Shown here: in pieces, positions 41,472-45,712 of the stretch
Layout: each line of letters begins with the position of its first letter
Numbering within the stretch: position 1 is the stretch's first letter
Sequence record: NC_054934.1
DNA from: Escherichia phage teqskov
DNA length: 64,000 nucleotides
Strand: one strand, 5' to 3'
Program-made: the position numbers and the translations under genes
The notes under the pieces: generated by a model
Databases searched by the model: none
Told to the model about the DNA's origin: nothing
What the model saw: only the letters and a program-made list of their open reading frames with translations

Positions 41472-42983
41472 TTATAAATTAACTGTTTTCATTACGTAAT
41501 TAAATTTTTCATCTGCGTAGCGCTGAATACGATCAATGCCATGTTTTAAAAGATAGTTCAAATGAACGTATTTCTTTTTCGTATTAGCAGATTTTGGTTT
41601 AACACCGCAATCATCGATGAGGTCCCAGACCGTTGCGATTGTTTTAGAACCATGCTTACGTAATACGCGACCTATTGTTTGCAATACAATAATTTTAGAT
41701 TTAACACCGTGCGCTAAAACAACGTGATGCAGATTTTTAACTGAAATACCAGTAGAAAATACACCATAACTAGCTACTATAATTATTCCTTTACCATTTT
41801 CAGCTAAGGTTTTCATTATATTGCGGGTTTCGGTATCAACTTCCCCTGATACGTAATAAACTTTATCGTATTCATTTTTAATTAAATCGAAAATAGCTTT
41901 ACCATGTGATACATGTTTAAACATGACAAAAGCGTTTTCATCTTTTTGCGCAAGCTTAATAGCTAATTTAGCGATCCATTTATTTCTTTTACTAAGCCCA
42001 GTAATAATTTTTATTTCTTCTTGATAAGTTTTTCCCTTTAATTTAGTAGTGAACTCATCTGGATAGCGAAGAAAAATACTATTAATTTTTAGCTCAGTTA
42101 CTTGTCCATCTTCCATTAATTTAGAAGTCGTTACTGGCTTAAATATTTCACCAAACATTCCAACATACTGCATGATATTAGCTTTGCCATCACGTAATGA
42201 ACCTGATAGACCAAATTTAAACATACAGTTATTTAATCCTGATATGATAGATGAAATACTTTTTCCTGTAGCAAGATGGCATTCATCATTCATCATCATT
42301 CCAAATTGTGAGAACCATTCTTTTGGTTGTTTTACTACAGTTTGCCATGTACCAACAACGACTGGTGCATCATTTTTATATTTATCATCTTTTGATGCTC
42401 CGCCGCCAATTTTCTTTATCATTGCATGGCTGAATAAACGATAGTCGACGAAGTCATCAGCCATCTGAGTTGTTAAGGCAGTTGTTGGAACAATGATAAG
42501 AATTTTACCTTCATAATTTTCCAAATAATATCGCGCAAGCAAAGCTTGAATTAAAGATTTACCTGCAGATGTTGGAAGATTAAGAATTCTACGACGATTA
42601 ACTAATCCTTCGAACACTGCATCTTTTTGATACCAGTGCGGTTCAATTCTTTTATTTCCTGAATAGATTTCTAATTTAGAAAGCCATTCATCAAAATCTT
42701 TTCTTGATAATTCTTCTTTTTCGTTAATTTGCGGGTCAATCCAGGCTTTATAGCCAAAGTTATCACAGAACTTTTTAATTTGCCCGACTAAGCCGAATGG
42801 AAGAAGACGATTATAATCTAAAAGACGGATTCGTCCATCCCAGTGGCCATATTTGTATTTCGGATTAAAACGATACCCATCAGCTTCAAAGCTAAAGAAA
42901 TCACGGAGTTCATGAAATGTACTTTCTTCACAATCAATTCTCACGTGACTAAAATCATAAAAATGTACTTTAATGTCAGTCAT
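41472..42983 (-). CDS. uvsW: UvsW helicase (SF2)
   Basis: 503 aa MTDIKVHFYDFSHVRIDCEESTFHELRDFFSF... with Walker A TSAGKS and DECH box; matches T4 UvsW. Confidence 0.95.
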   Translation of the reverse strand: MTDIKVHFYDFSHVRIDCEESTFHELRDFFSFEADGYRFNPKYKYGHWDGRIRLLDYNRLLPFGLVGQIKKFCDNFGYKAWIDPQINEKEELSRKDFDEWLSKLEIYSGNKRIEPHWYQKDAVFEGLVNRRRILNLPTSAGKSLIQALLARYYLENYEGKILIIVPTTALTTQMADDFVDYRLFSHAMIKKIGGGASKDDKYKNDAPVVVGTWQTVVKQPKEWFSQFGMMMNDECHLATGKSISSIISGLNNCMFKFGLSGSLRDGKANIMQYVGMFGEIFKPVTTSKLMEDGQVTELKINSIFLRYPDEFTTKLKGKTYQEEIKIITGLSKRNKWIAKLAIKLAQKDENAFVMFKHVSHGKAIFDLIKNEYDKVYYVSGEVDTETRNIMKTLAENGKGIIIVASYGVFSTGISVKNLHHVVLAHGVKSKIIVLQTIGRVLRKHGSKTIATVWDLIDDCGVKPKSANTKKKYVHLNYLLKHGIDRIQRYADEKFNYVMKTVNL

Positions 42984-43012
42984 GTCTAAATACCATGTAA
43001 TAAATATATCTA

Positions 43013-43020
43013 TATTTATA
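43013..43020 (-). promoter_or_regulatory. Late promoter (TATAAATA) for uvsW
   Basis: Plus-strand TATTTATA about 30 nt upstream of the uvsW start in the divergent uvsW / inh gap. Confidence 0.5.
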
Positions 43021-43033
43021 CTGAGGAAATATT

Positions 43034-43714
43034 ATGATAGATAAAGATTATATTGCAGAGCTGAAGGCTCTTGATGATAATAAAGAAGCTAAAGCTAAAT
43101 TAGCTGAATACGCTGAACAGTTTGGTATAAAGGTCAAAAAGAATAAATCTTTTGATAATATCGTTGTTGATATTGAAGAAGCCCTCCAGAAGCTCGCTAG
43201 TGAACCTATGCCAGAGACTGATGGGTTATCTATTAAAGACTTAATTGATGCTGCTGATGCCGCAGAGGGATTAAAATATGACGATGGAGAAGTCAATCCA
43301 GAAGCAGCACTTCTGATTGATTCTCCGGTTAAATCTGACATTAAAATTGAAGTAGTAGAAACGGATAAAATTCCTGAAAATACCGATGTTTTGATTGAAG
43401 ATACTCCCTTTGTTGAAGAAAAATTTGAACAGGCTGTAGCTGAGATTATTGAATCTGAAAAGCCGTCTGTATTTACTCTTCCAGAAAACTTTAGTCCGAA
43501 TCTTCAACTGATTGGAAAAAATCCAGGATTCTGTACTGTTCCTTGGTGGATTTATCAATGGATTGCTGAAACTCCTGATTGGAAATCTCACCCAACTAGT
43601 TTTGAACATGCGTCAGCACACCAAACTTTATTTAGTTTAATTTATTACATTAACCGTGACGGATCAGTTTTAATTCGTGAAACACGCAATTCTTCTTTCG
43701 TAACATTAAAATAA
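43034..43714 (+). CDS. inh: Inhibitor of prohead protease gp21
   Basis: 226-aa acidic ORF, T4 Inh size and position (upstream of hoc). Confidence 0.8.
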   Translation: MIDKDYIAELKALDDNKEAKAKLAEYAEQFGIKVKKNKSFDNIVVDIEEALQKLASEPMPETDGLSIKDLIDAADAAEGLKYDDGEVNPEAALLIDSPVKSDIKIEVVETDKIPENTDVLIEDTPFVEEKFEQAVAEIIESEKPSVFTLPENFSPNLQLIGKNPGFCTVPWWIYQWIAETPDWKSHPTSFEHASAHQTLFSLIYYINRDGSVLIRETRNSSFVTLK

Positions 43715-43723
43715 GGATAACTT

Positions 43724-45142
43724 ATGGCTTTTACAGTTGATATAACTCCTAAAACACCTACTGGAGTTATAGATCAGACTCAGCAGTTTACTGCTACACC
43801 CAGTGGTCAAACTGGAGATGGACCTATTACATATGCTTGGACTGTAGATGATGTTCCACAAGATGGAGCTGAAGCAACTTTTAATTATGTATTAAAAGGA
43901 CCTGCCGGTCAAAAGACTATTAAAGTAGTTGCAACAAACCAAGTCCCAGATACTGATGCTGAAACAGCAGAAGCTACTACAACTATCACAGTTCAAAATA
44001 AGACACAAACGACCACCTTAGCTGTAACTCCTAATAGCCCTGACGCTGGAGTAATCGGAACAGCTATTGAATTTACTGCCGCTTTAGCTTCGCAGCCATC
44101 GGGCGCAAACGCTACTTATCAATGGTATGTAGATGATTCTCCTGTGGGCGAAGCAACTAACGCTACGTTCAATTACACTCCTGCCGAAAGCGGGGTAAAA
44201 AGAATTAAGTGTGTGGCTCAAGTAACTGCGACAGATTATGATGCACTAAGCGTTACTTCTAATGAAGTATCACTGACTGTTAATAAAAAGGAGCAGACAA
44301 CTACTTTGGCAGTAACTCCTGATAGTCCTCCAGCAGGAGTAATCGGAACCCCAGTTCAATTTACTGCTGCCTTAGCTTCTCAACCAGTTGGAGCGTCTGC
44401 TACTTATCAGTGGTATGTAGATGATTCACAAGTTGGTGGAGAAACTAACTCTACATTTAGCTATACTCCAACTACAAGTGGAGTAAAAAGAATTAAATGC
44501 GTAGCCCAAGTAACCGCGGCAGATTATGATGCAAAGGAAGTTACTTCTAATGAAGTATCATTAACGGTTAATAAGAAGACAATGAATCCACAGGTTACAT
44601 TGACTCCTCCTTCTATTAACGTTCAGCAAGATGCTTCGGCTACATTTACCGCTAATGTCACTGATGCTCCAGAAGAAGCGCAAATTGAGTATTCATGGAA
44701 GAAAGATTCTTCTCCTGTAGAAGGGTCAACTAATGTATATACCGTTGATACCTCATCTATTGGAAGTCAAACTATTGAAGTTACTGCAACTGTTACTGCT
44801 ACTGATTATGATAGCAAAACTATTACAGCAGAAGGTCAAGTTCAGGTAACTGATAAAGTTGCTCCAGAACCAGAAGGTGAATTACCTTATGTTCATCCTC
44901 TTCCACATCGTAGCTCAGCTTACATCTGGTGTGGTTGGTGGGTTATGGATGAAATCCAAAAAATGACTGAAGAAGGTAAAGATTGGAAAACTGAAGATCC
45001 AGATAGTAAATACTACCTGCATCGTTACACTCTTCAGAAGATGATGAAAGACTATCCAGAAGTTGATGTCCAAGAATCGCGTAATGGATACATCATTCAC
45101 AAAACTGCTTTAGAAACTGGTATCATCTATACCTATCCATAA
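43724..45142 (+). CDS. hoc: Hoc outer capsid protein with four Ig-like domains
   Basis: 472 aa; Ig-like repeats followed by the conserved capsid-binding C-terminus (...PEPEGELPYVHPLPHRSSAYIWCGWWVMDEIQKMTEEGKDW...); about 96 aa longer than T4 Hoc (376 aa). Confidence 0.9.
   Translation: MAFTVDITPKTPTGVIDQTQQFTATPSGQTGDGPITYAWTVDDVPQDGAEATFNYVLKGPAGQKTIKVVATNQVPDTDAETAEATTTITVQNKTQTTTLAVTPNSPDAGVIGTAIEFTAALASQPSGANATYQWYVDDSPVGEATNATFNYTPAESGVKRIKCVAQVTATDYDALSVTSNEVSLTVNKKEQTTTLAVTPDSPPAGVIGTPVQFTAALASQPVGASATYQWYVDDSQVGGETNSTFSYTPTTSGVKRIKCVAQVTAADYDAKEVTSNEVSLTVNKKTMNPQVTLTPPSINVQQDASATFTANVTDAPEEAQIEYSWKKDSSPVEGSTNVYTVDTSSIGSQTIEVTATVTATDYDSKTITAEGQVQVTDKVAPEPEGELPYVHPLPHRSSAYIWCGWWVMDEIQKMTEEGKDWKTEDPDSKYYLHRYTLQKMMKDYPEVDVQESRNGYIIHKTALETGIIYTYP
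44009..44578 (+). repeat. Tandem direct repeat of 2 x 285 bp inside hoc (duplicated Ig-like domain)
   Basis: Residues 96-190 and 191-285 are 77/95 identical by hand count (TTTLAVTP[ND]SP...VKRIKCVAQVTA...TSNEVSLTVNKK); the underlying DNA units are clearly homologous. Confidence 0.8.
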
Positions 45143-45147
45143 TCATA

Positions 45148-45175
45148 AGGGGCTTCGGCCCCTTTCTTCATTTTG
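45148..45175 (+). terminator. Rho-independent terminator after hoc (UUCG tetraloop)
   Basis: AGGGGC-TTCG-GCCCCT followed by TTCTTCATTTT. Confidence 0.65.
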
Positions 45176-45213
45176 AAAGCACACAAAACACAATCAGAAA
45201 ATGATGTATATAA

Positions 45214-45447
45214 TTGCACCAACTCGATAACATGAGATTGATTATGAGAACTGAGGTTGTGGTGTTTACTCTTCATGAGTCTGGAAAGTCATTCATTGAA
45301 ATTGCTCGTGAATTAAACTTACAGGTGAAAGAAGTGGCTGTATTATGGGCTCGAGCTATGACTGCTAAGAATAAATTTGAAACTCGAGAAAAAGTTGTCT
45401 ATAGAAAAAGACATATCAATAAAAAGGTGAAAAATGGAACAGTATGA
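45214..45447 (+). CDS. Hypothetical small protein, possible helix-turn-helix
   Basis: 77-aa ORF (alternative ATG at about 45232); SGKSFIEIARELNLQVKEV resembles an HTH. Confidence 0.5.
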   Translation: MHQLDNMRLIMRTEVVVFTLHESGKSFIEIARELNLQVKEVAVLWARAMTAKNKFETREKVVYRKRHINKKVKNGTV

Positions 45448-45712
45448 TCTTTATGAAAATGAATCTTTTGCTAATCAATTACGCGAAAAAGCATTCAAAA
45501 GTAAACAGTTTAAGCTAGAGTGTTTTATTAAAGATTTTTCGGAACTTGCTAATAAAGCAGCTGAACAAGGTAAAACACATTTTAATTATTATTGTATTGC
45601 TCGTGATAAATTGATTACTGAAGAAATTGGTGATTGGCTGAGAAAAGAAGGATTCAGCTTTAAAGTCAATAGTGATCAGCGTGATGGTGATTGGTTAGAA
45701 ATTACATTTTGA
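45434..45712 (+). CDS. Hypothetical protein, 92 aa
   Basis: Intact overlapping ORF upstream of rnlB. Confidence 0.55.
   Translation: MEQYDLYENESFANQLREKAFKSKQFKLECFIKDFSELANKAAEQGKTHFNYYCIARDKLITEEIGDWLRKEGFSFKVNSDQRDGDWLEITF

Follow-up and report, generated by a model that had tools for sequence, protein, structure and literature searches.

A Probable Two-Copy Allele of a Copy-Number-Variable Ig-Like Domain Array in the hoc Gene of Escherichia Phage teqskov

Analyzing a 64,000-nt stretch of the genome of Escherichia phage teqskov (NC_054934.1; the window, whose coordinates are used below), we found that its hoc gene very probably represents the common two-copy (alpha-beta) allele of an array in which the second Ig-like domain of Hoc varies in copy number. 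Across T4 relatives such an array has one to four units belonging to four diverged types and set in a fixed order, with the units themselves being segmental mosaics. An earlier note on this DNA had described a recent tandem duplication of 285-bp units inside hoc, and the useful corrections to it are that the period is 288 nt, that the duplication is old, and that the allele is common.

Two in-frame units of 288 nt in hoc

The hoc gene occupies positions 43724-45142 on the plus strand and encodes 472 aa, against 376 aa for T4 Hoc (NP_049793), a difference that the earlier note had given correctly and that the ORF call and the T4 annotation confirm. Its identity is established by PHROG 1149, "Hoc-like head decoration," which matches the ORF with E=5e-140, by the T4 Hoc chain 5vf3_Z in the PDB, which matches the product with E=1e-219 (phmmer) in an alignment running through chain residues 95-376, and by an AlphaFold2 model.

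When the Hoc protein is compared with itself, a sharp peak appears at an offset of 96 residues (73/90 identical), with the runner-up offset reaching 28/90. At the offset of 96 aa, 77-78 of 96 residues are identical, and codons 94-189 and 190-285 share 78/96. Because identities peak at offset 96 and not at 95, the units measure 288 nt each, unit A lying at 44003-44290 and unit B at 44291-44578, both on the plus strand. The near-copies had originally been placed at residues 96-190 and 191-285, encoded by adjacent homologous units of 285 nt (95 aa); the identity count and the tandem, in-frame arrangement stand, but the register does not, since an offset of 95 aa or 285 nt gives just 5/95 identities and was dropped for offset 96. 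The copies are thus adjacent, in frame, and of equal length, with a period of 288 nt in the DNA and an offset of 96 aa in the protein. Tandem Repeats Finder reports the repeat at 44024-44578 (period 288, 1.9 copies, 77% matches, 0% indels, score 695), and a second repeat search pairs 43988-44275 with 44276-44563 at 75%.

In register, units A and B agree at 219/288 nt (76%) without indels and differ at the other 69/288 positions, with the longest exact runs being 14-21 nt. This similarity lies far beyond chance, since 30 codon shuffles reached at most 124/288 matches. It also sets the pair apart within the protein: A and B share 78 identities, whereas either unit shares 27-37 with domain 1 or the last Ig domain. 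The self-alignment that could have undone the claim of a duplicated domain therefore came out in its favor.

Domain anatomy and structure

Five segments, all on the plus strand, make up the gene. Ig-like domain 1 (43724-44002, codons 1-93) is orthologous to its namesake in T4 Hoc, being 87.5% identical at the nucleotide level to T4 codons 1-93. It is followed by unit A, the "alpha" type of domain-2 unit (codons 94-189), without a direct T4 counterpart, and by unit B, the "beta" type (codons 190-285), which aligns as the orthologue of T4 Hoc domain 2. The fourth Ig-like domain (44579-44863, codons 286-380) is the orthologue of T4 domain 3, with 86% nucleotide identity to T4 codons 190-284. The capsid-binding domain at the C terminus (44864-45139, codons 381-472) is 97% identical to that of T4 (dN 0.004), almost invariant across 34 alleles, and matched by PHROG 21694 over Hoc residues 408-472.

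An AlphaFold2 model built from the 34 aligned alleles (mean pLDDT 82) has four all-beta domains over residues 1-380 at a pLDDT of about 90 (blocks mostly 84-95), including beta strands at residues 4-91 for domain 1 (pLDDT 84-93) and at residues 290-376 for the fourth Ig domain. Each repeat unit corresponds to one modelled Ig-like domain plus a short linker, and the C-terminal domain is modelled at low confidence (pLDDT 36-59). Foldseek searches of the PDB with the model return proteins with four Ig domains (Dscam, Sidekick; E about 1e-13) as well as the Hoc of RB49 (3shs; E=8e-10), and Pfam places PKD, Ig_2, and Ig_3 matches in Hoc, with Ig_3 / I-set at residues 289-373. Taken together, the model, Foldseek, and Pfam therefore describe Hoc as four Ig-like domains with the capsid-binding domain after them. 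The proposal of a fourth Ig-like domain, an in-frame tandem paralogue of T4 domain 2, is accordingly sound, being backed by the model, Pfam, and the 5vf3_Z match. Variable positions within the unit show a weak enrichment in loops (15/25, against 42% loops overall).

Genomic setting

Comparison of the ORFs with the T4 annotation shows that the T4-type gene order uvsW - inh - hoc - 24.3 - 24.2 - rnlB is kept. The gene for the inhibitor of prohead protease, inh (43034-43714, plus strand), encodes 226 aa, the same length as in T4, and adjoins hoc upstream, as it does there; between window and T4 it has dN 0.006 and dS 0.074. Likewise, rnlB has the same length as in T4, with dN 0.003 and dS 0.147. 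T4 has the homing endonuclease gene segE between inh and uvsW; the gene is missing from window positions 42984-43033, the gap between uvsW (41472-42983, minus strand) and inh being only 50 nt.

Directly 3' of the hoc stop codon, a terminator-like hairpin of the intrinsic type with its T tract spans 45147-45174 on the plus strand; the GC-rich hairpin itself, GGGGCTTCGGCCCC, occupies 45147-45164, and phage e11/2 has an annotated terminator at the matching place after hoc. Farther downstream, a 24.3 homologue (45214-45447) opens with a TTG start, encodes 77 aa, and overlaps 24.2 (45434-45712); in public records 24.3 is annotated with lengths of 171-216 nt and differing starts. The exact late-promoter motif TATAAATA is absent from the plus strand over 42900-45300 and occurs once on the minus strand, at 43013. 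A scan for sigma-70-type promoters returned sites no commoner than in shuffled sequence.

Divergence of units A and B

Judged by their divergence, units A and B are old paralogues under purifying selection, with dN 0.137, dS 1.14, and dN/dS 0.12. Unit B is 92% identical in nucleotides to T4 domain 2 (100% over unit nt 120-216), with dN 0.053 and dS 0.21; unit A is 80% identical, with dN 0.096 and dS 0.93. On these values T4 domain 2 is orthologous to unit B, and unit A represents an old type of its own. The same comparison of window and T4 gives dN 0.091 and dS 0.30 for domain 1, and 91% nucleotide identity, dN 0.052, and dS 0.25 for the last Ig domain plus C terminus. The dS between A and B, which is near saturation, thus amounts to 4-15x the dS between window and T4, for which inh and rnlB give 0.07-0.15 and the remaining parts of hoc 0.25-0.33. 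A and B are therefore far older than the split between teqskov and T4.

Distribution and length classes

A megablast search with the gene matched 681 phage records, many of them over all 1419 nt at 94-98.5% identity, and the matches include phages of Escherichia, Shigella, Yersinia, Salmonella, and Proteus. Allele frequencies were taken from 60 of the 681 records, evenly spaced down the ranking, and from 90%-identity clusters, in both of which many records are related isolates. In the sample of 60, the span is 1419 nt (4 Ig) in about 20 records and 1131 nt (3 Ig) in about 30; two further records carry longer alleles, and the remainder match the C-terminal part only. We used the span in the record here, because megablast coverage proved unreliable for telling 3-Ig from 4-Ig alleles: a lone domain 2 can be aligned with unit A as well as with unit B and so reaches 100% coverage. 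Alleles of the same 1419-nt length have 90-98.5% nucleotide identity to the window.

The best 120 protein clusters comprise 81 of 376 aa, 29 of 472 aa, 8 of 568-570 aa, and two off-length ones (377 and 468 aa); several of those with 472 aa contain 58-167 member sequences. A tblastn search with a 568-aa allele found that class in at least 16 records, and the hoc coding sequences of slur03 and Sfk20 encode 664 aa. Lengths of 376, 472, 568, and 664 aa therefore correspond to one, two, three, or four copies of the domain-2 unit. The search for 3- and 4-domain alleles in related phages, which the earlier note had recommended, thus yielded both, and 5-Ig and 6-Ig alleles besides. Teqskov shares the 4-Ig allele with hundreds of public genomes of Tequatrovirus and Mosigvirus, and the allele is nothing peculiar to this phage.

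Two records at the long end, Sfk20 (L037, 16-2010) and slur03 (L038, 10-2004), have six Ig-like domains, four of them domain-2 units, and are the longest Tequatrovirus hoc alleles that we saw. Yersinia phage PST (L025, KF208315, 301-1720) spans 1420 nt and has hoc annotated from an internal start (791-1720); no intact full-length ORF was found there, probably owing to a frameshift or sequencing error in the record. A scan of IMG/VR gave 21 loci, few of them from Tequatrovirus.

Unit types, order, and mosaicism

The four units of slur03 served as reference types, named alpha, beta, gamma, and delta; they are 74-84% identical to each other in nucleotides, with dS of 0.55-1.67. Unit A finds its best match in the first of these four (90%), and its protein is identical to unit 1 of a 5-Ig allele (P0004); unit B finds its best match in the second. 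Typing at the DNA level gave alpha-beta arrays for the window, Solly, SP1, and an IMG/VR locus (L002), alpha-gamma for phiD1, and alpha-delta for pSs-1 and HP3.1. Three-unit arrays are alpha-gamma-delta in UGKSEcP1 and alpha-beta-delta in T4_ev151, and alpha-beta-gamma-delta is found in slur03 and Sfk20. Typing of the 120 clusters at the protein level returned the same orders, plus alpha-beta-gamma and beta-delta. Wherever a multi-copy array can be classified clearly, it keeps the order alpha, beta, gamma, delta. In a few alleles the first unit could be read as either alpha or gamma, and an apparent "gamma-beta" exception was set aside on this ground, with its first units showing 79-81 identities to each type.

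Each type also has counterparts among single-copy alleles, which are alpha-like (JK38, ST0, e11/2), beta-like (PhiZZ23, RB10, and T4 in part), gamma-like, or delta-like (LF73P3). Moreover, compared segment by segment, the units are mosaic at a scale of about 50 nt, the best-matching type switching within single units. The single domain-2 unit of T4, for example, has a delta-like head, a beta/gamma center, and an alpha-like tail.

Variation among close relatives and between genera

Over window positions 30000-54000, the nearest genomes are 97.3-97.9% identical. Two of them, Solly and G2540, have a 4-Ig hoc of the same length, and five, PhiZZ23, FriedrichZschokke, JK38, teqdroes, and Sf22, have one 288-nt unit less (3 Ig). 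In Sf22, JK38, and PhiZZ23, domain 1 and the segment of domain 3 plus C terminus are 96-99.6% identical to the window, and the single domain 2 between them is unit-B-like in PhiZZ23, unit-A-like in JK38, and mosaic in Sf22. A simple deletion accounts cleanly for none of these three, the best single-breakpoint fits reaching 94-96% with a mosaic domain 2. Among phages filed under the same species, pSs-1 has two units and Sfk20 has four. Close relatives thus differ by whole units, and the fact that both copy number and unit content vary among near-identical genomes points to recombination within hoc and not to slow vertical change.

The exchange may reach farther. In the Mosigvirus phage moskry (L042, MN850651, 201-1619), a 4-Ig hoc is 95.9% identical in nucleotides to window 43724-45142, and the flanks are 88% (3' end of inh) and 74% (downstream) identical; in the Mosigvirus phages p000v and ST0, flanks are 71-76% identical. 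From such comparisons, hoc alleles appear to have been exchanged between genera.

Origin of the array

If domain 2 had recently been duplicated in tandem within the lineage of teqskov itself, as the earlier note had it, this would readily account for adjacent, in-frame units of equal length without indels whose likeness to each other far exceeds that of all other Hoc domain pairs. Such a recent event is contradicted by the amount of change, with 24% of nucleotides differing and a dS of 1.14, near saturation, where window-T4 values are 0.07-0.33, as well as by the unequal likeness of A and B to T4 domain 2. Nor is the two-unit allele confined to close relatives: about one-third of the sampled T4-like records, and Mosigvirus, share the 1419-nt allele, which occurs in many phages from several host genera, and arrays of three and four copies contain alpha and beta units orthologous to those of teqskov. 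We therefore consider recent duplication highly improbable. The sample as a whole gives the same picture, since none of 36 multi-copy alleles has neighboring units more than 85% identical in amino acids; no truly recent duplication is present in it, and only reshuffling of old units is documented. Even less credible is an assembly or sequencing artefact that doubled one segment, the error against which the earlier note had cautioned. Repeats are a general risk for assemblers, which is all that speaks for such an error here, but reads would be placed uniquely by the 69 differing positions, and the frame is intact. The structure is also present in metagenome contigs and in hundreds of genomes that were sequenced independently, with 167 member sequences in one cluster (P0011) and 72 in another (P0010), so that divergence and independent assemblies together exclude the artefact for practical purposes.

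A different history, in which unequal crossing-over joined already diverged single-copy alleles of the alpha and beta types with no duplication followed by divergence, deserves more weight, although we think it unlikely. The divergence of A and B would then be older than their junction, because the alleles diverged before joining. Alpha-, beta-, gamma-, and delta-like alleles all exist as single copies, T4-type phages recombine freely, and hoc alleles appear to move between genera. The domain 1/domain 2 and domain 2/domain 3 junctions share a "TV-NK" motif, and such short conserved boundary sequences, together with the exact in-register runs of up to 14-21 nt, are the proposed homology. What speaks against joining is the constant alpha-beta-gamma-delta order, more simply explained by a single ancestral array, and the single-copy types might just as well be what deletions left behind. 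For the preferred reading, an old array of ordered units, a difficulty lies in T4, whose mosaic unit does not have the pattern that results from a simple deletion keeping the head of an early unit and the tail of a late one. The ancestral state may have been either a four-unit array that has been losing units or diverged single-copy alleles from which arrays were built; the fixed order favors a common ancestral array, and the existence of all unit types as single copies is compatible with assembly from diverged alleles.

Under the preferred reading of an ordered array, unequal homologous recombination and allele exchange would add, remove, and reshuffle whole units, with the conserved unit ends as the likely site of the unequal recombination that changes copy number. 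Such recombination and exchange would account for the segregation of 3-, 4-, 5-, and 6-Ig alleles in genomes that are otherwise nearly identical. Synonymous divergence between neighboring units may in turn stabilize the array. Tentatively, and as something we would not yet favor over its denial, the domain-2 region could be seen as a cassette array in which four ancient, paralogous units stand in order and recombination, also between genera, gains, loses, and swaps units and so yields fibers of four lengths and many combinations, with synonymous divergence possibly selected as a guard against recombinational collapse in a phage that recombines so readily.

Comparison with known Hoc proteins

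In T4, the C-terminal domain of Hoc binds every gp23 hexamer at its center, one monomer to a hexamer (PMC10385173; PMC11853027), the Ig-like domains form a roughly linear fiber of about 180 Angstroms (PMC10385173), and they bind mucin glycans (PMC10385173; PMC11853027). Compared with T4 Hoc (PDB 5vf3, 8t1x), the teqskov protein shares the gene position, domain 1, domain 2 (as unit B), domain 3, and the C-terminal domain, and differs by the extra 96-aa unit A (alpha), which follows domain 1 and precedes the T4-type domain 2. The near-identity of its C terminus to that of T4 suggests that it would be seated on the capsid hexamer in the same way. The extra Ig domain should lengthen a T4-type fiber by roughly a quarter and would offer one more potential glycan- or surface-binding module.

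Public 472-aa alleles (for instance those of vB_Eco_Solly, KarlGJung, GADU22, Yersinia phage phiD1, Shigella phage pSs-1, HP3.1, and moskry) have the identical architecture and length; they differ by point changes and by the second unit, which is beta in Solly and SP1, gamma in phiD1, and delta in pSs-1 and HP3.1. In the moskry record, an annotated repeat_region covers both units. A similar difference of one tandem Ig unit separates two IMG/VR loci of another Tevenvirinae lineage (L006, 472 aa; L007, 471 aa) from a third (L008, 377 aa). In L007 (1501-2907), aa 186-279 and 280-373 agree at 75/94 residues and at 76% of nucleotides, about as in teqskov, but in L006 and L007 the duplicated domain is of the capsid-proximal domain-3 type and not domain 2. 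That duplication is an independent, parallel event.

Variation in Hoc domain number has been published, and the 4-Ig allele is an ordinary, known length variant. A survey of 650 Hoc homologues reported strings of Ig-like domains, up to 10 of them in Serratia phage Muldoon (PMC10385173), the Hoc of PNJ-9 is a 2-Ig variant (PMC11853027), and a variable number of Ig domains on a conserved capsid-binding domain extends to Klebsiella phage PMBT63, with 4 Ig (PMC10385173; PMC11853027; PMC13435897). The Hoc proteins of PNJ-9, PMBT63, and Muldoon are distant homologues with different extra domains, whereas here one domain forms a copy-number series in near-identical genomes. In the searchable papers that we found, the 4-, 5-, and 6-Ig alleles of Tequatrovirus, the series of one to four domain-2 copies, and the ordered unit types are undescribed. 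The ordered cassette array is thus a modest comparative observation that we did not find described in them.

Implications

Hoc is used for display on the T4 capsid and has been implicated in adherence to mucus, making natural variants in its length and domain content of practical relevance. The natural series of one to four units offers ready material for asking what influence arm length and domain identity have on mucus binding, immunogenicity, and display, and, being diverged, the units in this series should not easily recombine away.
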